Assembly: GCA_000091205.1 (NCBI GenBank)
Contig: AP006489.2
Reading direction: 5' to 3' (one strand)
Length of the DNA: 64,000 bases
DNA from: Cyanidioschyzon merolae
Lineage: Eukaryota
The notes beneath the pieces were generated by a model. That model was not told where the DNA came from and did no database searches. It saw only the letters and a program-made list of their open reading frames with translations. Both the position numbers and the translations under genes were made by a program. Shown piece after piece: positions 13,957 through 53,748 of the stretch. Within the stretch, counting starts at the first letter, position 1; each line of letters opens with the position of its first letter.

Positions 13957-15660
13957 ATGACATTTATAGTGCCCTCGCGAGGAGTTCGTGCCCCACAAAA
14001 GCACGCAGTGTTGCAAGCGAGGCGTCCGCGGGGACCCGGTCCCTTGACGAGGTGCTGGCGCTTGGCACCCCTGCGGGCGAGCCTCGAAAGGCCGCGCTCT
14101 GTGACCCCTGCCGACGACGACAACCAGGTGCTCGGCTCGACCAAAGTACCGACTCGGAAACGGGAACCCACAAGTGCATACAGTTACATCGACAGGGCAC
14201 GCATCCGCGTCAAGGGAGGCGACGGCGGTGACGGGTGTGTAGCTTGGCGTCGAGAGCGTGGCAACGCACGCGGTGGACCCGCTGGTGGCAACGGTGGACG
14301 AGGCGGTGACGTCTACCTCGTGGCAGACGCCGGACTAAATACTCTAGTCAAGTTCGGAAGTGTGGTTCACTTCACGGCTGAGAACGGAGAAAAGGGTCAG
14401 CCGAAAAACTGCACTGGCGCCGATGGCAAGGCGCTGGAGCTGCGAGTCCCGCTCGGTACAGTTGTCTACGACGCAGAAACGGGAGCGCTCTTGGGCGATC
14501 TTGACCAGGTTGGTGCGCGGTTGCTGGTCGCACGGGGTGGTCGCGGTGGTCGCGGCAACGCAGCCTTCAAAACGGATCGAAACCGAGCGCCCGTTATCCG
14601 CGAAAAGGGTGAACCCGGCACCGGCTGCTGGCTTCGTCTGGAACTGCGCGTGCTCGCCGATATCGGCATTATAGGGTGTCCCAATGCTGGCAAATCAACT
14701 TGGCTTGCAGCGGTGAGCAACGCGCGACCAAAGATTGCTGACTATCCCTTTACCACTCTGGTTCCGAATCTGGGCGTCTACGCTGAGAACGTTGTCCTTG
14801 CGGATATACCGGGGCTTTGCGAGGGCGCCCATCTCGGGCGAGGGCTTGGTATAGGATTTCTCCGCCATATTGAGCGCTGCCGCATGATACTGCATTTGGT
14901 TGCAGGAGATGCACCAGATCCTCTCTATGATCTACAGGCTATTCGTTTGGAGTTGGCGTTGTTCAATCCGCGTCTGGTCCAAGACAAATTGCACGTCGTG
15001 CTCTTTACGAAGATGGATTTGCCTTTGGCCCAGCAGCGTTGGAATGATGCTTCTTTCCGCGAGGCGTTCCAGAAGGCAGTGGGGCACCGCCGGATTGCCG
15101 CCGTATCAGCAGTTACGGGCCAGGGTGTAGAGGAAACCATGCAGCGTGTATGCAAGCTCCTGGAGAAAATCCCGCAACCTGACCGCTTAAGCTCGCTGCC
15201 TGATGCATCTCCTGGTGTGCTAGAGCAATCGCGGAGCCCAGCAGCCGCTGATACCTTTCGTGGTGATCATGACGCCATCGGTGCGAGCGTGGATGGCACG
15301 TTCCGTATCCAAAAGGAGCGAATGGCAGATGGCCAGCGGCGCTGGCGCATACTGGGTTTGCCCAAGCTCGAAAGACTCGCTGTTATGACGGACTGGGCGT
15401 ACCCAGAGGCCGTGGATCGCTTTCAGCGAGTACTTCGAGCGCTGGGGGTCACGGAGGCGCTCTCGCAGAGCGGCATTCGCGCCGGTGATGTTGTCGTCAT
15501 TGCGAATATTGAATTCGACTATACCCCCGATGATAATGTGTTTTACCAGAATGCCCTAGAGGACGGTGTGGACTTGTTTAAGGACACAAGCGATGTCGAG
15601 ATCGCTGTGGATGAGGATCACGATTATCGTGAATGGAGCGAAAACGTTTCGCAATCATAG
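13957..15660 (+). CDS. OBG: Obg/CgtA-family GTPase of bacterial (organellar) type with a C-terminal OCT domain. The N-terminal roughly 70 aa look like an organellar targeting extension.
   Basis: Obg fold YIDRARIRVKGGDGGDGCVAWRRE..GGPAGGNGGRGGDVYL; G1 GIIGCPNAGKST; YPFTTLVPNLGV; G3 DIPGL; G4 FTKMD; C-terminal FRIQKE...WRILGLPKLERLAVMTDWAYPEAVDRFQRVLRALGVTEAL = Obg C-terminal domain. Confidence 0.9.
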   Translation: MTFIVPSRGVRAPQKHAVLQARRPRGPGPLTRCWRLAPLRASLERPRSVTPADDDNQVLGSTKVPTRKREPTSAYSYIDRARIRVKGGDGGDGCVAWRRERGNARGGPAGGNGGRGGDVYLVADAGLNTLVKFGSVVHFTAENGEKGQPKNCTGADGKALELRVPLGTVVYDAETGALLGDLDQVGARLLVARGGRGGRGNAAFKTDRNRAPVIREKGEPGTGCWLRLELRVLADIGIIGCPNAGKSTWLAAVSNARPKIADYPFTTLVPNLGVYAENVVLADIPGLCEGAHLGRGLGIGFLRHIERCRMILHLVAGDAPDPLYDLQAIRLELALFNPRLVQDKLHVVLFTKMDLPLAQQRWNDASFREAFQKAVGHRRIAAVSAVTGQGVEETMQRVCKLLEKIPQPDRLSSLPDASPGVLEQSRSPAAADTFRGDHDAIGASVDGTFRIQKERMADGQRRWRILGLPKLERLAVMTDWAYPEAVDRFQRVLRALGVTEALSQSGIRAGDVVVIANIEFDYTPDDNVFYQNALEDGVDLFKDTSDVEIAVDEDHDYREWSENVSQS

Positions 15661-20003: not shown

Positions 20004-21994
20004 CTTGTTTCAGATATAGACGTCCGTCGTTGTTGTCGTCGATCGACGCGGAGCAACGAGTCACCACCGGTTTCCGCTGCCGGACTCGAAGCACCTACCG
20101 TTGTCCACGTCACGAACGACCATAGAGTCAATAGGCACTATCCAGTTTCCTGTTCGGTGTCGTTTTCGTTCAGGGCACCAGATCGAGACAGTTTCCTGGT
20201 AGAGTACGCGGGGCGTCGAACGGCAATGCTAGTTTTCAGAAGTACAGCGTACGCGTCTCGCGACTGAATACAATCAAGTTTGGGTGATTCGGGGGCTGCT
20301 CTAACGAAAACGCTGCAACCTGATACCAGTAGATTCGACTAATCTTTCGTTCTGGTCCAATGAATCAAACCATCACGCCACTGGATGTATGATGGCTATG
20401 GGGAACTAGGAGCGTGACTCCTGTTCCTCGCTGAGTACGACAAGGTTCCAGAGACTCTGGACGAATCGCTCCTTCGGGAGTAGGAGCCGGAACCAACCAG
20501 CGGACCTTGCGAGTGCGGAGGCTCTCTCTTACACCCGCTACAACGCTGAGTGCTTCGTTACGCTGTTCATGCAGAGACCGGAAAGCTTTGCGGTGCTTTA
20601 TGGACGTCAACTCTACACAAGACCAGACGTGTCGGACACACGCTAGCTAGATTCGGTTTCTCCAACGGCATGCGCTGCGATCTGTTGTTCTTGTAGCGCG
20701 CCTGCCGAGTCCATTGCGAAGACATCATCAACGAGCGCCGCAACGTTTTGGGTACGGTAGCCACTCTAGGCATGCAATGGGTCATGGCACGAGCGCGGGT
20801 GTATCCACAGTGTCGTGCGATGGACTCGAATTCTGCGCTCTAGCAACCACAATAGCAACAGCATTACTCCCTGTACGCGCTAGGAAGCGACTCCAGCGGC
20901 GCTGTGTACCTCGTGTAATCATCGCTGAGCGCTACACGGTATCGAGCGACCACCACAGGCGCACCAACTGGCCGATCTGTTCGTCCGCAGCCGGAAAGCC
21001 CACATACGCCCGCAACGAGGTCATAGATGCGCAAACTCGGTGCAGGAGCGTTGCTGCATGGTGCACGTGCCTACGCTCGGCGTGCGTCTCTTGCGCATGC
21101 GCTGATGCCAGCGCCGGTGAATCCGGATACGCGGCCCGCATCGACATGGAGGCTGGTGCTAGGACCCAGTGCGTAGCGCGCCTTCACGCCATCGAGACTT
21201 GTGGAAACTGGTGTCGTGATTTCGGCATGGTTCTCTTCCGAGCAAGGCACGGATTTGCTGGCGGGTTTAGCGGAATGCATTCGTGCAATGCAAAACAAAC
21301 GTAGCAGATCCACGGTCTATTGCAGCATTTCGATAGCGTTGCGTACGACTTTACCTGTTCCCGCATTCGTGGACTGTCCATGATACGAATGGACCCCGAC
21401 GCATAAACAAAGCGCACCACTATAGTATTGCACGGACCGCATTTTCGCCACTGTCCTGCTATGAAGTCTTTCAAACGGGCATAGACTGCCTCCAGCACGT
21501 TGTTATGATCCGGCACATGCCAACGGCAACGCGTCCGACACGAACACCCGACGCATCCAGCGGTGCATCGTGTAAGCGAATCGGGCGCCACCATCCATTC
21601 CAAGCTCCACCTGGAATCAGGAGCTCGTCCACCAGACGCCAAACAGCTCAGAAACTAGACGTAGAGGCAGCGCAGAGATGCATCTAAATGGGGAATCCTC
21701 GCATCGCACAGAGAGAGGCACACCGGGATCGTTTCCAGCTACCTGCGTGGAGCATGCGATCACGGCAAGCGACCGTCAAACTCGGCACTCTGCTCGCCTT
21801 TGTATGGACAGCTTCCGCGATATACCGATACGTCGCACATCCACTGTAACGCTCGTCGGATTCGCTGCCTGAAAATTCGCCCCAATGCATCATACAGCAT
21901 CGCAGTGGAAACGCTGAGCGACAGCCGCTCAGCGTGCAACGACTGGGTGTGCATGCGCCCACGGCCGAGTGGATCTCCCTGCTTCGCTGCGATC

Positions 21995-22111
21995 GCGCAC
22001 GCACGCATACGCACGCACGCATACGCACGCACGCATACGCACGCACGCATACGCACGCACGCATACGCACGCACGCATACGCACGCACGCATACGCACGC
22101 ACGCATACGCG
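21995..22111. repeat. 14-bp minisatellite (cgcacgcacgcata) x about 8, immediately upstream of DXR.
   Basis: Perfect tandem copies are read directly. They produce the [14 protein letters not shown] peptide repeats in the upstream part of the DXR ORF. Confidence 0.9.
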
Positions 22112-22225
22112 CTGTTGCAGAATACCGTACACTGTTCAGCGCTGCGCTGCTGCACCGAGGCCGGCTACCAGCACACTCTTCTCGTGCATGGTAAGCGTTG
22201 TTTTAATATTGAATTGAACCAATAT

Positions 22226-23713
22226 ATGAACGCTAAACCCGAACAGCTTCAAGCGCGAGGCGGTGCTTTGCTGACTCCTCGAAGCTCAACCGCGCCGGGT
22301 GCTTTCCTTGCGGCATCGGCTGGCGTGCGCCTCTTGGTTGGCGGGTGGACAACTCGTGGAGGCACCTGTCGTCAGCGCAGTACGCGTCGTACCCCGGCCC
22401 GATGGGTCTGCATGGACCAGGGTGCTGCACCCGTGGGCACGAGGAAGAGCATCCAGGCGCTGGAGAACGCGCTCCAACCTACGGCGTTCCACCGACGCGT
22501 CACCATTTTGGGAAGCACCGGGAGCATTGGAACGCAAACCCTGGATATTGTGCGCTCTTGTCCGGACAAGTTTTCTGTCGTAGCGTTGGCGGCGAACGGT
22601 TCAAACGTAGAGCTTCTCGCGGAGCAGACGCACGAGTTTTCGCCCGAACTTGTCGCTATACGTGATACTGCCCGCCTCGAGACCTATCGGGAGGCGCTGC
22701 GGCAGCGTGGCGTCCCGGAACCGCCGCACATTGTTGCTGGCGAAGACGGTGTCGTCGAGTGTGCGCGATACGGTGACGCAGATGTCGTTGTCACTGGGCT
22801 TGTTGGATGTGCGGGTCTCTTGCCCACAGTTGCTGCGATCAAGGCCCGAAAAGACATTGCGCTGGCGAACAAGGAAACACTGATCGCGGGCGGCCCCGTG
22901 GTCGTGCCCCTAGTTCACGAGTACGGCATTCATCTGACTCCAGCCGACTCAGAGCACTCTGCGTTGTTCCAGTGTCTTCAGGGTGCGCCAGATGGCGCGC
23001 TTCGGCGCATCATTCTCACGGCGTCTGGTGGTGCATTTCGCGACTGGGATGTTTCGCGCTTAGCGCATGTGACTGCTGCAGATGCGCTCAAGCATCCGAA
23101 CTGGAACATGGGTCCGAAAATCACTTGCGATTCGGCGACGCTCATGAACAAGGGTCTGGAGGTTATTGAAGCGCATTTTCTCTTTGGCATCGATTACGAC
23201 GCCATCGAAATTGTCATCCATCCCCAGTCGATCATTCATTCGGCAGTCGAGTTTCAGGATACGAGCGTTCTCGCTCAACTCGGATGGCCAGATATGCGTC
23301 TTCCACTGTTGTACGCGCTGTCCTGGCCTCATCGGCTTCGGATTGAGACGTTTCGCCCACTGGATCTCGTTCAAGTGGGAAGTCTAACTTTTCGCGCGCC
23401 TGACCACGACAAGTATCCATGCATGCTTCTCGCGTACGCTGCGGGACGCCGTGGCGGTACCATGCCGGCGGTGCTGAACGCGGCGAACGAGGTCGCGGTG
23501 GAGCTTTTCCTGCGTAACGAACTGGAGTTTATGGGGATTCCCGCGGTCATCGAGCGCACCATGCAGCGGCATGACACAAGCGACTGGAAACAAACACCTA
23601 CTTTGGATGATCTCATTGCTGCAGATGCTTGGGCGCGTCGCACGGCACGAGAGGAGGCCGCGAAGCGCCCGATCTACCCCGCCGGGGCTAACCTGGAGAC
23701 GCAAAAGACGTAG
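22226..23713 (+). CDS. DXR: 1-deoxy-D-xylulose 5-phosphate reductoisomerase (DXR/IspC, MEP pathway). The start is ambiguous: the ORF is open from 21800, through the minisatellite. ATG 22226 gives a roughly 60-aa presequence and ATG 22412 lies just upstream of the catalytic core.
   Basis: [141 protein letters not shown] are collinear with bacterial/plastid DXR. Confidence 0.9.
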
Positions 23714-34552: not shown

Positions 34553-35767
34553 TCAGCACGGTACCAGCCGCAACGAGGCGGGAACGCGGGCCACGTCAAT
34601 GTTCATTCGGTACGAAGGCTGTAGTAACGGATCGTTGTCGATCCGCTTGATCAGGTGATGAATCATGTCCGCTCTGAGATACTTGCGAACCAGGGCATCG
34701 ACGACGCGATTTTCAAGCCACGTATCAGGAGCGTGGCTCGGCTCGGTTTCCGCCATATCAATCTGTGGACTCGAGTCTGACGAATCTGGTGATAGGATCG
34801 AAGAAGATGACTGCGCGGATAGCCGAGGCAGGAGACGTGGCGTTTCGTGGACCTCACGAGGGCGCCAGTCTCTGTGTGATCGCTCGGTATCGAGCGCCGT
34901 CGGTTCCCGGTGCCATTTGCCATATCCATTAACCACACTGGACTGTAGCTCGTGTGCAAGTCGATCTAGTTCTGCTTTCAAGCGCTGCGATTGCATTGCT
35001 GCTGCTTGCAGAGCAACATTCGCACTCAGTTGCTTGCGCGCTGCTCTGAATCCATACGCGGAAGATTCCCTACACGTCGGCGAATACCGTCGCCTTGAAC
35101 CCGCTTTCGTCGTCACGGCTGCCGGACCCGGTGTCGGCCAGTCATGATCTATGGGGGTATCCGCGGGCTGCCTCGGGGAAATCGTGGAAATGCTCCCGTC
35201 TGAGAGCATCGTGTCGGGTGTCGCTCGTGACGGTGTTTGTCGCGGCTCTGCGGGGTGAGTTCGCTCCCCAGACCGCGCTTTGCGAGCAAGCCGCCTGGTT
35301 TCAATCACCGTTGGCGTGGAAGCAGTGCTCGGAAAAGATGTGGTGTCTGTTAGAACAAATGAATCACTGTCGAATAGACTACTAGCGAAACTCAAGTCAA
35401 CAGTGCTGAGCTCCAAATCAGCTGGTTCCGTCGACCGCGCTATTACTCTTTCCGTTTGTTGCGCAGGTCGGTAGCGAGACGCCCCGGCGCGTACGGGTTG
35501 GTGCTCCCGCTTACCGCTGGGAGAGGCACTTCGACTGATAGCATCCTCTTCCTCCTCATGTTCTTCCAAAATTCTTTCGATCTCTTCGCTTTCAATGTCC
35601 AAGTCCTCGAGGGACAGCTCCTCCTGTAACTGCCGTAACGTGTCCTCGTCCAACAAGCCTTCGCTTTCTGCGAACAACTCGGACTCTACTTCCGAGGCTG
35701 TGCTATCATCAGAGGCCAGTAACGCATCAAAGCTGCTAGAAGCGGACACGTCACCCAGCTCGGGCAT
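34553..35767 (-). CDS. Hypothetical 404-aa protein with a highly acidic, Ser-rich N-terminal half (probably disordered) and a conserved-looking C-terminal segment.
   Basis: Uninterrupted ORF. The N-terminus is D/E/S-rich (EEIERILEEHEEEEDA). The C-terminal RVVDALVRKYLRADMIHHLIKRIDNDPLLQPSYRMNIDVARVP looks structured. No family was recognised. Confidence 0.4.
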   Translation of the reverse strand: MPELGDVSASSSFDALLASDDSTASEVESELFAESEGLLDEDTLRQLQEELSLEDLDIESEEIERILEEHEEEEDAISRSASPSGKREHQPVRAGASRYRPAQQTERVIARSTEPADLELSTVDLSFASSLFDSDSFVLTDTTSFPSTASTPTVIETRRLARKARSGERTHPAEPRQTPSRATPDTMLSDGSISTISPRQPADTPIDHDWPTPGPAAVTTKAGSRRRYSPTCRESSAYGFRAARKQLSANVALQAAAMQSQRLKAELDRLAHELQSSVVNGYGKWHREPTALDTERSHRDWRPREVHETPRLLPRLSAQSSSSILSPDSSDSSPQIDMAETEPSHAPDTWLENRVVDALVRKYLRADMIHHLIKRIDNDPLLQPSYRMNIDVARVPASLRLVPC

Positions 35768-36134: not shown

Positions 36135-36211
36135 CGCAGCTGCCTTTCAAATCGCAAGAGCGATCAGAGCAGCTGCCTTTCAAATTGCATGAGCGATCAG
36201 AGCAGCTGCCT
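36135..36211. repeat. 33-bp tandem repeat, about 2.4 copies (gcagctgcctttcaaatcgcaagagcgatcaga).
   Basis: Two near-identical units plus a partial third, about 770 bp upstream of the Tem1-like GTPase start. Confidence 0.85.
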
Positions 36212-36904
36212 GATGCCATCCGAGCAACAGCATGGGTGACAGGGCTCGGGGTTCGGGCGTGTGGATCGATCGATGGATGCTTCGCCGCGCGCTGACCAGC
36301 AAGCGCGCAGTCGAGGAACGCTGAACAGGGTCAACTATTTCCAAAATTAAAACATAAAACAATCACTGCGCTGGTAGTGAACGTCCAGCGTTCTGAGGTT
36401 GCGCGATGCGCGCGAACGCCACGGGCTGTATGCACCTGGGCAGCTCGGGCGTGCGGATCTCTATAGCGCCACCGCCGCCGTCGCAGCAGCAGCCGCAGCT
36501 GCACGTGTCAAGCTGGAGGCTTGTCTGCCAGCTGGGGTCAGCGAGCAGGAACGCAAGACGTGCTTCGCTCACGGGACGTTGCGTCTCGAGACCGCTGTGT
36601 TCTTCGGAACTGGGTGATTTGAAGAGTGCTCACAAACCGTTGGGCCTATTTGGGTTCTCGTGTGAGGGTTTCGTGGAGGTTCCAACGGCGCCTTGAGGTC
36701 GGGTGCTCCTCCCAGACGCACAGCGCTTGCGCCAGGGGGGTGTCTGGTGCGGTTCCCGCTTAGGGAAACGGTGCACCCTATTTTGACAGTTTGTGGTTGC
36801 CGGTGTATTCGTGTGAGAGAAACCGTGGTACGCAGTGTTGTGCTTCAGCCGAGTGGCGCCGGTCGGAAGCCATTGTGATTGTTGATTCTGCGCTAAAGCT
36901 TCGT

Positions 36905-36945
36905 TTGGGAGCTTTGTGTGTGTGTGTTTGTTTGTGTGTGAATAG
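36905..36945. repeat. GT-rich (GT)n/(GTTT) tract about 40 bp upstream of the GTPase ATG.
   Basis: gctttgtgtgtgtgtgtttgtttgtgtgtg is read directly. Confidence 0.8.
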
Positions 36946-36980
36946 GTTCTCGATAACGGGAACAAAGCGCGATAGGGGAC

Positions 36981-37877
36981 ATGTCTGAGTGGAACGAGGT
37001 TGTCTCGCCGAGGCGCCTGGTGTCTGTCAGCCCGCACGGAGAACCAATGACTCGAGCAGAATCGCCGCTGAGAGGTAGTCCGGAGGCGCGGACGCAGCAG
37101 CACGAGGAGGTCGCGCTCGAGCTTGCGAGGGGGGATGTGCCGGCGGAGCCGACGGATGCTGTAGATGAGGCAGCAAGTACGCTAGCCGCTCAAACACTGG
37201 ACGAGAATGAGGTTGAGCAGACTCCCAGCTCACCTCCTTCGTCCTCGTCTGTGTCGATGGGATTCGGAGGCGAGGCGCCGTACCTTGCCCGTCGTCCGCG
37301 CCGATCCTCGCTAACCCTCAAAGTGGGCATGGTGGGCGATGCCGGTTGCGGGAAAACTTCCCTTATGGTGCGATACTGCGAAGGCCACTTCGACGAGGAC
37401 TATATCATGACACTAGGAGTGAATTTTCTTGAACGCTCCGTTTCTCTGCGGCACACAGACATCGTGTTCTCTGTCTGGGATCTGGGAGGTCAAAGTGAAT
37501 TCCGAACGATGCTTCCCCTGGTGACCAGTGACGCCGCAGCCATGCTTTTTATTTTCGACCTCACGAGAAAAACGACGTTGATCTCCATTCGAGACTGGTA
37601 CCAGCAGGTACGATTACTCAACGTCACAGCGGTTCCGATTCTGGTAGGCAACAAGTACGACCTGTTTATATCACTTGCGGCTGATCAGCAGGCTTCGATT
37701 GTTCGTCGAGCCCGGAAATACGCACGTGCCATGCATGCGCCGCTGGTTTTTTGCAGTGCAAGCCATTGTGTTCAAGTGCAGCGAGTTTTCAAGTTGGTTC
37801 TCGTCCGGCTTTTCGATCTTCAGCCGGCTTTCGAGCGCCAAACTGATGCAGCACGAGGCCCACTGTGCGAATGGTAG
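36981..37877 (+). CDS. Small Ras-superfamily GTPase of the Tem1/Spg1 (mitotic-exit / septation-initiation) type, with a roughly 110-aa acidic N-terminal extension.
   Basis: LKVGMVGDAGCGKTSLMVRYCEGHFDEDYIMTLGVNFLERSVSLRHTDIVFSVWDLGGQSEFRTMLPLVTSDAAAMLFIFDLTRKTTLISIRDWYQQVRLLNVTAVPILVGNKYDLF matches Spg1/Tem1 closely and in order ([39 protein letters not shown]...WDLGGQREF...LFMFDLTRKSTL...IPILIGTKYD). G1, G3 (DLGGQ) and G4 (NKYD) are intact. Confidence 0.8.
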   Translation: MSEWNEVVSPRRLVSVSPHGEPMTRAESPLRGSPEARTQQHEEVALELARGDVPAEPTDAVDEAASTLAAQTLDENEVEQTPSSPPSSSSVSMGFGGEAPYLARRPRRSSLTLKVGMVGDAGCGKTSLMVRYCEGHFDEDYIMTLGVNFLERSVSLRHTDIVFSVWDLGGQSEFRTMLPLVTSDAAAMLFIFDLTRKTTLISIRDWYQQVRLLNVTAVPILVGNKYDLFISLAADQQASIVRRARKYARAMHAPLVFCSASHCVQVQRVFKLVLVRLFDLQPAFERQTDAARGPLCEW

Positions 37878-38865: not shown

Positions 38866-39381
38866 CTAGCTTCCATGCTCATCAAAGCTTGAGCGAAACT
38901 GGACAAACTCAAGCAAACTCTTCACGAAGCACGCAAACTCGCCCGCCGAAGCAAGCACTCCCGAGAGCCTCTCCATGCGCTTCGTGCGACTCACGCGCGG
39001 CTCCACGATAAACTCTATGGTCTCTCGCTGCTGCTGAACCTGTGCGCGCAAATACTCTAGCGTAGCCTGGTCTTCTACAGAGTCTGCTGTCTGGCCGCTC
39101 GAGCTGTTGTTTACCAGAAGCGCGAGCCGCTTCGCGAACGACTCGGCGCGTGCTGCGGGGTCACGCTCGGGCACCGCGACCCCTTTCGTACGTTTCCAGG
39201 TTGGAGCGCGTTGTGCACCCAGCGTTCTGTACTGACTCGAACAGCGAGGCACATGTTCTTGGAAACACTGTGCACTACCGTAGCGCACCCCGCAGACTGG
39301 ACATCGGTACTTGCTACTGCAGTCGACGCTTGCCCCGAGTCGTGTCCCTGAACACACCTCGCAGCGCCCTGTTTTGTCCAT
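38866..39381 (-). CDS. Hypothetical small Cys-rich (zinc-finger-like) protein, 171 aa.
   Basis: The N-terminus CEVCSG...CPVCGVRYGSAQCFQEHVPRC is a C2HC/C2H2-like arrangement. The ORF is bounded by an (ACGC)n-containing intergenic region. Weak. Confidence 0.35.
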   Translation of the reverse strand: MDKTGRCEVCSGTRLGASVDCSSKYRCPVCGVRYGSAQCFQEHVPRCSSQYRTLGAQRAPTWKRTKGVAVPERDPAARAESFAKRLALLVNNSSSGQTADSVEDQATLEYLRAQVQQQRETIEFIVEPRVSRTKRMERLSGVLASAGEFACFVKSLLEFVQFRSSFDEHGS

Positions 39382-39557: not shown

Positions 39558-39642
<85 letters not shown>

Positions 39643-39645
39643 CGT
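39558..39645. repeat. (ACGC)n microsatellite, about 21 units, in the divergent intergenic region between 38866..39381(-) and 39781..40803(+).
   Basis: A long perfect cacg/acgc run is read directly. It is flanked by a TG-rich tract at 39745-39770. Confidence 0.95.
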
Positions 39646-51441: not shown

Positions 51442-53748
51442 CTAGCGAACCCGCCGAAACCCTTGCTGTACAGCACGTTCAGTGAGTCGGCCGAGCACTT
51501 GCCGAAACAGGTCGCTTGCAGGCGGTGCGAGCTCCAGTAGCCACTCGAGTGCGTCGGGAGCTGGAAGCCACGGTACCAGCGGCAACAATCGCGGTACAAG
51601 CGATACCATTGGCAACGCCCGCTGCGTGCTTCCTCGTGACCAGTAGCTGTCCGATTGCTTTTGTATTCCTGCTGTGAGCAGTGTCGGGGTCAGCTCACCG
51701 AGAAACTGCACCAGCTCACGCAACGTCTCAAGCTTGGCGATATCGTGAGGCGCACGCCGCCCGCGTCGTCTCGGATCCAACAGGAGCTCGACGCCATCGA
51801 CAATCTCGTCCACGAGGAGCTCTCGCAGAACCTTACCGCCATCGCTCGCCAGCACAAACCGCAACGCAGCTCGCATAGCTGCAGCATCCATCTGTTTCGG
51901 TGGAGCGTCAAAGTCTACAAATGCTTTGCCATCGATAAGGAGGCCCTGGCTTGAGCTGATCAGTGTACGCAACCGGGCGATCCGCAGACGCGACCCGTTC
52001 GCGTAGAGAATCTCGCGCAGTGCCTTGCGTAAAGTCTGGTTATTGGCGCTTGCCGCCGTCATGACGCGTCTACTCACAAACGGTAGCGCCTCCATGATCA
52101 TTTTGAAGTTCGGGTCCGCTTTCAGCGCGATGCCTTCGAGCACGCCCAAGGCTCGGATGATCAAGGCAAAATACGGCGGAATCGAGAACGGGAATTCGAA
52201 GGTTACCGCGGCAAGGTCGCTGGACAGGGATCGAAAGTCGATCGCGCGAGCGCCACCACCCTCTAGAGCCTGGTTCAAGATGTTACCCATAACTCCTACG
52301 ATGCGTGAGCGGTTCTCCCGAACCTTCTCGGTATCCGGGAGAAAATCGAGCGCGATAAAGTCATCGACCACGGCCTCAAAGTCGCGATTCGCCAAGTGAA
52401 TGATTGAGGCGACCATCCGATCCATTTGCGGGCGCTCAATCTCAGCCATAAGACCAAAGTCAAGAATCACCAAGCGTCCGTCGGCGGTGGCTAACAGGTT
52501 TCCGGGATGAGGATCTGCGTGGAAAAACCCCGTCTCCAGCAGCTGCGTTAGGAAACACTCAACACCGACGTTCACTAATGCTCGGATACGCTCGGGAGGA
52601 GCGTCTGCCAGTTTGGTTCCGTCGATCCACTCGGTCGTCAGAACCCGTCGTGAAGTGTATTCGAAATAAACCTTGGGAATTTTCACCTGATCAGCAGTGA
52701 TCCTGGCCTCGGGATCGGAACCGCGCTGCTGCAAGCAACCGAGGAGCAGGCGTTCGAAGCGTTCCGCGTTACGACCCTCGTTCACATAGTCGAGCTCGAG
52801 ATACATTCCACGAGCCCATTGGGTAAACAGTGCGATAAAATCCGTTCGATTGGCGGTAAAGAGATTCTGGATGCTCTGCGCCGAACCTGCCAGACGACGG
52901 ATGCAAAACAAATCCAGAGAGACGCGCTGCAGCATATCAGGTCGCTGCACTTTCACGGCGACTTTTTTCTGCGGGTCTCGTGCGAGCGTTCCCCGATAGA
53001 CTTGCCCTAAAGAGGCAGCTGCGACTGGCTCGGGCGTGAGCGTTGCGAAGACGTCATCGACGGAGCACCCCAGCTCCTCTTCGATCATGCGCCGTGCCAC
53101 TGCCGTCGGAAACGGTGGTACCGCATCGTGCAGCTTTTGTAGCTCGCGCATGGTAACCGGGCCGACGAGGTCCGGTCGAACGGCGAGCCACTGCCCGATT
53201 TTGATAAAAGTTGGTCCAAGTTCGGTAAGAATCTCGCGCAGACGAGCTGCTCGTGCCACCTCGAGGTCCGCTTTCGCCGCTCCCGATGCAGTCGACATTC
53301 GCGAAGTCGCCGTCGATACCAGGAAAGGAATCAAGAGCGAAGAAATCTCGCTGAGGCGGCGCGCAACCTCCGTTGGCCTTCGCGACCAGTAGGCGGCAAT
53401 CGCGTCCTCGTCGTAGGTAAGCGGGAGTCCGCGGTCCGCGTCCAGCACTTGACGCGTCTGGACGGCTGCCAACGCCTCAGTGTTATCAGGCGGAGGACTC
53501 AAGACCGCACGGCTCGCCAGCGTATTCATCGCGCGCGATACTCGAGTGCGTCGCGCGGCTTTCCCCTGAACGGCCACAGGCCGCGTACACCAAGTCGCGG
53601 CAGGAGCGGGCAACTCGTGTCTCGTAGGACGCAGTGTCCGCTTGCCAGCCGTCAGGGTGAACGCCTGCTGTGCTCCCACAAAGAGCATGCTCGGCAATGC
53701 TCTAATGAACATTGGTCCCCTTTCATTTGATCTATTTTGATTTCTCAT
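51442..53748 (-). CDS. ABC1/ADCK (UbiB-family) atypical protein kinase, of the type usually found in plastids or mitochondria. It has a roughly 90-aa N-terminal presequence.
   Basis: LGPTFIKIGQWLAVRPDLVGP...ELQKLHDAVPPFP, AAASLGQVYRGTL..KVAVKVQRPDM, HADPHPGNLLAT.DGRLVILDFGLMAEI = conserved ABC1 kinase motifs (KxGQ, AAAS/GQVY, HADPHPGN, DFG) in order. Confidence 0.9.
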   Translation of the reverse strand: MRNQNRSNERGPMFIRALPSMLFVGAQQAFTLTAGKRTLRPTRHELPAPAATWCTRPVAVQGKAARRTRVSRAMNTLASRAVLSPPPDNTEALAAVQTRQVLDADRGLPLTYDEDAIAAYWSRRPTEVARRLSEISSLLIPFLVSTATSRMSTASGAAKADLEVARAARLREILTELGPTFIKIGQWLAVRPDLVGPVTMRELQKLHDAVPPFPTAVARRMIEEELGCSVDDVFATLTPEPVAAASLGQVYRGTLARDPQKKVAVKVQRPDMLQRVSLDLFCIRRLAGSAQSIQNLFTANRTDFIALFTQWARGMYLELDYVNEGRNAERFERLLLGCLQQRGSDPEARITADQVKIPKVYFEYTSRRVLTTEWIDGTKLADAPPERIRALVNVGVECFLTQLLETGFFHADPHPGNLLATADGRLVILDFGLMAEIERPQMDRMVASIIHLANRDFEAVVDDFIALDFLPDTEKVRENRSRIVGVMGNILNQALEGGGARAIDFRSLSSDLAAVTFEFPFSIPPYFALIIRALGVLEGIALKADPNFKMIMEALPFVSRRVMTAASANNQTLRKALREILYANGSRLRIARLRTLISSSQGLLIDGKAFVDFDAPPKQMDAAAMRAALRFVLASDGGKVLRELLVDEIVDGVELLLDPRRRGRRAPHDIAKLETLRELVQFLGELTPTLLTAGIQKQSDSYWSRGSTQRALPMVSLVPRLLPLVPWLPAPDALEWLLELAPPASDLFRQVLGRLTERAVQQGFRRVR

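Follow-up and report, generated by a model that had tools for sequence, protein, structure and literature searches.

Assignment to the Spg1/Tem1 family of a red-algal small GTPase from Cyanidioschyzon merolae

Introduction

In yeasts, the Spg1/Tem1 GTPase serves as the molecular switch by which the last step of cell division is timed. Schizosaccharomyces Spg1 interacts with Cdc7, with Cdc16–Byr4 and with the spindle pole body, and budding-yeast Tem1 is known together with its regulators (Bfa1–Bub2, Lte1 and Kin4) and with its output, the release of Cdc14 from the nucleolus. Land plants carry members of the same family, the SGP/SPG1 proteins; Champion et al. in 2004 reportedly found that the plant proteins SGP1/2 (AtSGP1/2) complement fission-yeast SIN (spg1) mutants. 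A non-fungal, functionally studied instance of the GTPase is that of Dictyostelium, where Spg1, at the centrosome, works upstream of SepA, a Cdc7-like kinase (‘septase’), in cytokinesis (PMC8534566), which shows that the logic of switch and kinase is older than the fungi. Eliáš and co-workers called the Spg1 group ‘poorly known, yet broadly conserved’ (PMC4736243), and according to a 2026 survey little is understood of what Spg1 does in the cell outside model taxa (PMC13393502).

Two reports bear on what such a switch could control in Cyanidioschyzon merolae, a red alga. Cdc14 has been reported in this organism despite its having no flagella (PMC3038932), and its cytokinesis is described as proceeding without an actomyosin ring in work by Imoto et al. 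(2011), as that work appears among the references of PMC8089483. Dictyostelium, in contrast, divides by actomyosin furrows. Here we describe a C. merolae gene encoding a small GTPase, found in a window of 64,000 nucleotides (the whole stretch of DNA analysed). Taken as a whole, the evidence is best explained if this gene is the orthologue, in C. merolae, of the Spg1/Tem1 (plant SGP) GTPase, and its product is very probably a GTP/GDP switch for mitotic exit or cytokinesis.

Gene model and existing annotation

The open reading frame runs uninterrupted from ATG to stop, with exactly the limits given in the initial annotation (Table 1). Along its entire length, its product shows 100% identity to BAM79657.1 (XP_005535943.1; UniProt M1VBG7) of C. 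merolae 10D. The product name of that protein in GenBank, where the record has 584,452 bp, is ‘small GTP-binding protein of Rab family’. At JGI, near-identical metagenome entries go under the name ‘GTP-binding protein of the ras superfamily involved in termination of M-phase’. Full-length orthologues are present in Cyanidiococcus yangmingshanensis (293 aa, 70% identity) and in Cyanidium caldarium (295 aa, 64% identity), the latter under the UniRef name ‘Septum-promoting GTP-binding protein 1’.

An in-frame stop lies 27 nt 5′ of the ATG. Translation of the protein's long N-terminal extension is supported by ORF conservation: all three species keep the frame open, stops occur over the first 330 nt in each of the six frames except frame 0, and Cyanidium has no methionine between Met1 and the G domain. 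We considered Met23 and Met93 as alternative starts and rejected both as the main one, since the N-terminal sequence MS(E/A)W is common to C. merolae and Cyanidiococcus; an internal start is also disfavoured by the Cyanidium protein, which is devoid of internal methionines upstream of the G domain. One member of the family, as called by JGI, is 276 aa long, the length expected from a start at Met23.

Table 1 Features of the C. merolae GTPase gene, with positions in the window
Feature	Position	Strand	Basis
Complete single-exon CDS, 298 aa + stop, Spg1/Tem1-family GTPase	36981..37877	+	ORF list; 100% identity over 100% length to P0001
Acidic, Ser/Pro/Thr/Ala-rich, predicted-disordered N-terminal extension, aa 1–103	36981..37289	+	Composition; AlphaFold2
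Basic junction RRPRRSSLTL, aa 104–113, just before β1	37290..37319	+	Conserved in three Cyanidiales
Small-GTPase G domain, aa 114–278	37320..37814	+	Pfam Ras PF00071; AlphaFold2 pLDDT 80–95, Ras-type β/α order; Foldseek
G1/P-loop GDAGCGKT, aa 119–126	37335..37358	+	Alignment; G119, D120, G124, K125 and T126 invariant in 62 members
Switch I/effector region FDEDYIMTLGVNF, aa 137–149, including the G2 threonine T144	37389..37427	+	Invariant or nearly so family-wide
G3/switch II WDLGGQ, aa 166–171, catalytic Gln171 kept	37476..37493	+	G169 family-diagnostic
G4 NKYD, aa 224–227, then family-specific 5-residue insertion LFISLAADQQ	37650..37661	+	Alignment
G5 CSAS, aa 258–261, family-diagnostic F257 just before	37752..37763	+	Alignment
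Family-specific C-terminal tail FDLQPAFERQTDAARGPLCEW, aa 278–298, aromatic last residue	37812..37874	+	Aligned with Spg1 FDLKCTIPEI..GEPILEY and plant ..GEPLVVY/GEPIIDY termini

Family assignment

We compared the core of the C. merolae protein (aa 105–298) with members of the Spg1/Tem1 group and with reference GTPases of other families. Identity to the Spg1/Tem1 anchors (S. japonicus Spg1 and members from Planoprotostelium, Cryptococcus, Parvularia and Aspergillus) was 57–60%, at 235–248 bits, compared with 26–30% and 44–99 bits for Rab22A, Rab1A, Rab5A, Rab11A, Rab7A, Ran, RhoA and HRas. The human RAB1A, RAB5A, RAB7A, RAB11A, RAN, HRAS and RHOA references were checked against PDB chains, which they matched save for engineered mutations and, in the best-scoring chain, one Asp/Glu difference in the tail of RAB7A. 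Among the anchors, S. japonicus Spg1 (P0042) has 57% identity over 191 aa and 246 bits. Saccharomyces-type Tem1 (YML064C; represented by the Zygosaccharomyces and Torulaspora TEM1 cluster P0135) shares 53% identity and 207 bits with the algal core, and lies further from the family consensus than the alga does. Land-plant SGP/SPG1 proteins (Arabidopsis AtSGP1/2 and Selaginella SPG1, P0209), which belong to the same supergroup as the alga, Archaeplastida, share about 39–48% identity with it.

Database searching placed the protein in the same company. In an exhaustive HMMER scan of 1.84 billion representatives, 175 clusters scored E ≤ 1e-30 and ranked before the mass of Rabs, 8,665 at E ≤ 1e-10. 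Among the best 120 homologues listed, those beyond the Cyanidiales (~245–260 bits) bore the names Spg1, Tem1 or ‘septum-promoting GTP-binding protein 1’, generic small-GTPase or P-loop names, or ‘hypothetical’, and many were unnamed; the named matches among these 120 came mostly from fungi, together with Planoprotostelium and Parvularia.

Phylogeny had been set beforehand as the test that could refute an assignment to Tem1/Spg1. We computed a neighbour-joining tree from 90 sequences, aligned over 196 trimmed columns (Kimura distances; a distance-based rather than a maximum-likelihood tree). In 197 of its 200 bootstraps the C. merolae protein and the Spg1 anchors formed a clade from which the Rab, Ran, Ras and Rho references were all excluded, in a sampling that left out Rab-like groups such as RJL, IFT27 and RABL2; the assignment was not refuted. 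The three Cyanidiales were monophyletic in all 200. In a single neighbour-joining tree, not resampled, the same large clade also held the Saccharomycetaceae TEM1 (YML064C) cluster, land-plant sequences named ‘SPG1 / septum-promoting GTP-binding protein 1’, a ‘Tem-1-like protein’ of Giardia, a ‘cell cycle-associated GTPase’ of Entamoeba and a foraminiferan sequence.

Individual residues point the same way. We defined diagnostic columns as those at least 80% conserved within the family and differing from the references. At 14 of these 15 columns the C. merolae protein has the family residue, the sole exception being T182, where the family has Cys. The diagnostic residues that it holds include the LGG of WDLGGQ, VxxD in the place of YYRG, the Phe before G5 and the DL in β4; the 5-residue insertion after NKxD is present as well. 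The motif stretches quoted in the initial annotation could be traced to FDEDYIMTLGVNF (aa 137–149), WDLGGQSEF (aa 166–174) and FIFDLTRKTTL (aa 190–200), but the fourth, given there as beginning with IPIL, reads VPILVGNKYD (aa 218–227). From the identities, the tree and the diagnostic residues, we assign the C. merolae protein to the Spg1/Tem1/SGP GTPases and not to the ordinary Rab, Ran or Ras proteins, in agreement with the initial annotation.

This classification is correct but ordinary: the gene is already deposited, automated names already place it or its orthologues in the Tem1/Spg1 group and the group itself has been described as broadly conserved, so that what is left is a routine identification and, as set out below, a correction concerning the N-terminal extension. 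Its practical value is modest and lies in mending a misannotation at the subfamily level, with the automated UniRef and JGI names already pointing to Spg1/Tem1.

G domain and C-terminal tail

Pfam recognized one Ras-family domain (PF00071, aa 114–274, E 4.6e-33), with weaker matches to Roc and Arf. AlphaFold2, run on a 62-sequence alignment, gave a confident Ras-like G domain, with pLDDT values of 80–95; switch I was of low confidence, as is usual for small GTPases. The nucleotide-binding and catalytic motifs G1–G5 are all intact as judged from the alignment, and the domain is predicted to adopt a Ras-like fold.

The motifs combine canonical and family-specific features. Switch I, FDEDYIMTLGVNF, is nearly identical in the alignment to its counterpart in yeast Spg1. 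In G3, L-G-G is the signature of the family and T-A-G that of Rab, Ras, Ran and Rho; position 169 is Gly in 84% of family members and Ala in all 8 references. Position 257, just before G5, is likewise Phe in 81% of members, with E or D in all references. G4 has the canonical Asn in the Cyanidiales, NKYD, compared with TKYD in Spg1 and in most fungal members. F278, L280 and P294 of the C-terminal tail are invariant across 62 members. Schizosaccharomyces Spg1 and the algal protein have in common the layout of G1–G5, the near-identical switch I, WDLGGQ, the insertion after G4, a G5 of the form FCS(T/A)S, a non-prenylated aromatic tail and membership of the same clade. Their tails differ at the very end, where Spg1 reads GEPILEYQSV and the alga GPLCEW-COOH.

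The solved structures that come closest are those of Rabs, and they speak for taking the protein as an ordinary membrane-traffic Rab GTPase, as its GenBank product name does. Rab22A was the best match by sequence (86 bits), and Foldseek returned Rab5, Rab1 and Rab22 as the best folds (TM 0.75–0.87, target-normalised; 22–29% identity), with both Rab and Rho structures matched. Neither the PDB sequence search nor the fold search returned a solved structure of Tem1 or Spg1, and Rabs topped both. The Pfam result, too, resolves the protein only to the generic Ras and Roc families, and the Spg1 group has been placed in the same unresolved subgroup as Rab, Ran, Ras and Rho (PMC4736243). Against this reading stand the much lower identity to Rabs than to Spg1/Tem1, the exclusion of the Rab references in nearly every bootstrap and the failure of the protein to match Rab motifs: it has VTSDA where Rabs have YYRGA, and LGG (in WDLGGQ) where they have TAG (in WDTAGQ). 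Nor does its C terminus, GPLCEW, offer a site for geranylgeranylation, as no CC, CXC, CCXX or CAAX prenylation motif is present, the double Cys of Rabs is missing and the only Cys stands alone at position −3. We regard an ordinary Rab as extremely improbable, and the ‘Rab family’ label as a misnomer at the subfamily level.

N-terminal extension

In Spg1, a protein of 198 aa, about 11 residues precede β1, compared with 113 in the alga. The algal extension has a net charge of −8 and, over aa 1–112, contains 18 Asp and Glu against 10 Lys and Arg (pI 4.7). Given these counts and a Pfam domain that starts at aa 114, its description in the initial annotation as an acidic extension of roughly 110 aa was accurate. 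Residues 1–92 are the more acidic (17 Asp and Glu against 6 Lys and Arg, pI 4.3), and residues 93–112, which include RRPRRSS, are basic (pI 11.5). From aa 1 to about 105 the AlphaFold2 model has pLDDT values of 41–47 and no secondary structure.

The extension is kept in length and charge in all three Cyanidiales (108–113 aa, net charge −7 to −8), with merely 8 invariant columns across aa 1–103. In the comparison with Cyanidiococcus, the extension has a pN of 0.56 and the core one of 0.03, a contrast often shown by disordered linkers and tails. We set aside the dN/dS of the extension, 0.48, as uninformative, since synonymous sites are saturated and non-synonymous sites nearly so.

The junction that follows is different in character. 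The pattern R-x-RRSSLTLKVGMVGD is invariant in the three Cyanidiales (R105, R107, R108, S109, S110, L111, T112 and L113), and at Ser110 it fits the basophilic-kinase consensus RxRxxS/RRxS. None of the aligned members from fungi, plants and protists, the land-plant SGP/SPG1 proteins examined among them, had RRPRRSS, and within this alignment the junction is specific to the Cyanidiales. That it serves as a phosphosite or a localisation signal is a conjecture.

The initial annotation called the long acidic extension unusual for the family, and this does not hold. Of 111 close homologue clusters, 14 have an extension that reaches 90 aa or more, as do 25 of the 89 representatives at 50% identity (13–28%); land plants and Pezizomycotina are among them, and long extensions are thus ordinary for Spg1/Tem1 proteins. 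Land-plant orthologues resemble the alga in architecture: an extension, 101–184 aa long in those that allowed a measurement, is followed by the G domain and by a C terminus of the form GEPxxxY. Most of these plant extensions are basic or neutral, unlike the algal one. We saw no sequence similarity between red-algal and plant extensions, which may therefore be independent acquisitions. The Tem1 proteins of Pezizomycotina (for example Aspergillus P0084, Cladorrhinum P0027 and Thermomyces P0077) have, like the algal protein, long, low-complexity and mostly acidic extensions (97–176 aa, pI 4.1–5.0), but these cannot be aligned with the algal extension and lead into the G domain through (K/R)NS/HVVIKVG rather than RRSSLTLKVG.

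Possible function

If the C. merolae protein works as its relatives do, it would cycle between GTP and GDP forms, and the GTP form would recruit a kinase of the Cdc7/Cdc15/SepA type. The recruited kinase would feed an NDR/LATS–Mob1 kinase step, and through this cascade nuclear division, once complete, would be coupled to mitotic exit and cytokinesis, with a TBC-type GAP (Bub2/Cdc16-like) probably turning the switch off. An effector of this class is favoured by switch I, which differs little from that of yeast Spg1. The disordered N terminus would stand outside the catalytic mechanism and most likely adjusts where the protein is localised or how it is regulated, phosphorylation at RRxSS being one example. 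A literature search pairing Cyanidioschyzon with Tem1, Spg1, MEN, SIN, Mob1 or Dbf2 gave the Cdc14 report as its sole relevant result, and no papers citing or discussing the accessions of this GTPase were found.

An alternative is that the protein is a true Spg1/Tem1 orthologue whose function has diverged in the Cyanidiales, so that it no longer exerts MEN/SIN-like control and instead has a nucleolar role (compare the localisation of plant SGP) or coordinates nuclear, plastid and mitochondrial division. The reported lack of an actomyosin ring in C. merolae, taken from the references of PMC8089483, means that the classic downstream target of SIN would be absent, and several features set the Cyanidiales apart: the RRPRRSS junction, T182 in place of the family Cys, GPLCEW in place of GEPxxxY and, in the neighbour-joining tree, a branch separate from the fungal and amoebozoan members. 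The poor understanding of Spg1 roles outside model taxa (PMC13393502) leaves room for such a change. Against it speak an almost unchanged switch I, the strong constraint on the core indicated by its pN and the retention of Cdc14 (PMC3038932), as does the complementation of fission-yeast SIN mutants reported for plant SGP1/2 (Champion et al. 2004). We consider a diverged function unlikely, and prefer to see the protein as a switch for mitotic exit or cytokinesis of the kind known from its relatives.

A constrained switch and a reported Cdc14, in an organism reported to lack an actomyosin ring and, in one report, flagella and centrioles, leave a further reading, which we put forward tentatively and with rather little confidence. 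The GTPase may time a late-division event that is independent of actomyosin, for instance abscission or the point at which organelle division gives way to cell division, and the acidic region of the Cyanidiales together with RRPRRSS may act as a phospho-regulated module for localisation or auto-inhibition. Were this so, the ancestral job of the GTPase would be that of an ‘end-of-mitosis timer’ and not of a ‘ring or septum trigger’. An extremely reduced eukaryote, reportedly devoid of an actomyosin ring, would in any event have kept an Spg1/Tem1 switch under strong constraint. The genome of C. merolae is about 16 Mb, its division is synchronous and its genes can be targeted. Synchrony and gene targeting would make it a clean, minimal system for studying the role of Spg1/Tem1 in the absence of the canonical fungal output, which is an opportunity rather than a discovery.

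Genomic neighbourhood

The initial annotation had placed the gene in a non-fungal lineage with plastid-pathway genes nearby. This was borne out: the source is a red alga, and the gene for DXR, an enzyme of the MEP pathway, lies 13 kb upstream. The occurrence of the family outside fungi is not surprising, given its named members in Giardia, Entamoeba, Dictyostelium and plants. We rejected a functional linkage of the GTPase to the plastid-pathway genes, as its other neighbours (RNA pol I A49, NAPRTase, an ABC1 kinase and Obg) are functionally unrelated. None of the MEN/SIN component genes looked for in the 64-kb window (Bub2/Cdc16, Bfa1/Byr4, Cdc15/Cdc7, Mob1, the NDR/LATS kinase Dbf2/Sid2 and Cdc14) was found there.

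Cyanidiococcus keeps the order DXR, RNA pol I A49, an unknown of 403 aa, the GTPase, two ORFs of 172 and then 338 aa, and NAPRTase. This synteny reflects the relatedness of the two algae on a eukaryotic chromosome where neighbours are unrelated, and so implies no functional link. Several ORFs overlap the gene in antisense (36630..37103 and 37027..37233, both on the minus strand, and others), and we take them to be putative chance ORFs in GC-rich DNA.

Sequence features of the GTPase and its family

The Cyanidiales (C. merolae, Cyanidiococcus and Cyanidium) retain the canonical NKYD as the guanine-specificity motif (G4) of the Spg1/Tem1-type GTPase, at residues 224–227 of the C. merolae protein; in most Spg1/Tem1 proteins of fungi and Amoebozoa the motif reads TKYD instead. 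Among the homologues found with the C. merolae GTPase as query, one Spg1 match labelled Adiantum nelumboides (P0035) shares 61% identity with the query, and its C-terminus, ...GEPLLLYVDT, resembles that of basidiomycete (Cryptococcus) Spg1. A genuine fern orthologue, from Adiantum capillus-veneris (P0223), clusters with land-plant sequences in the neighbour-joining tree. P0035 is probably a fungal contaminant in the fern assembly.

Genomic surroundings of the GTPase gene

Both ORFs flanking the GTPase gene have counterparts in Cyanidiococcus, in which the neighbourhood is syntenic. The Cys-rich ORF corresponds to a gene of 172 aa and matched the HIT zinc finger only below threshold, scoring 17.8 bits (E 0.0028) where the cutoff is 24.7. 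The very acidic, Ser-rich ORF corresponds to a gene of 403 aa at the same position and gave no match in a Pfam search. Repeats lie on either side of the GTPase gene. The perfect (CGCA) microsatellite occupies either an intergenic or a 5′ region, and the long (ACVR)n and (HART)n ORFs on both strands are spurious because they are produced by this repeat. The 33-nt tandem repeat and the (TG)n-like tract could be promoter or 5′-UTR elements, or else merely simple repeats.

The initial annotation placed the GTPase gene next to 'plastid-pathway genes', by which it presumably meant those for DXP reductoisomerase, an Obg-family GTPase and an ABC1 atypical kinase; the products of all three are probably targeted to organelles.

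Features of the GTPase gene and of the window around it
Feature	Position	Strand	Remarks
Obg-family GTPase	13957–15660	+	
DXP reductoisomerase	21800–23713	+	N-terminal extension of ~230 aa ahead of catalytic domain
Acidic Ser-rich ORF	34553–35767	−	404 aa; divergent from GTPase gene
Tandem repeat	36136–36211		33-nt unit, 2.3 copies, 95% match; ~800 nt 5′ of GTPase ATG
(TG)n-like tract	about 36905–36940		within 80 nt preceding GTPase start codon
G4 motif	37650–37661		
Cys-rich ORF	38866–39381	−	171 aa; directly downstream of GTPase gene
Microsatellite	39559–39644		perfect (CGCA) × 21.5; between Cys-rich ORF and next + strand ORF
ABC1 atypical kinase	51442–53748	−
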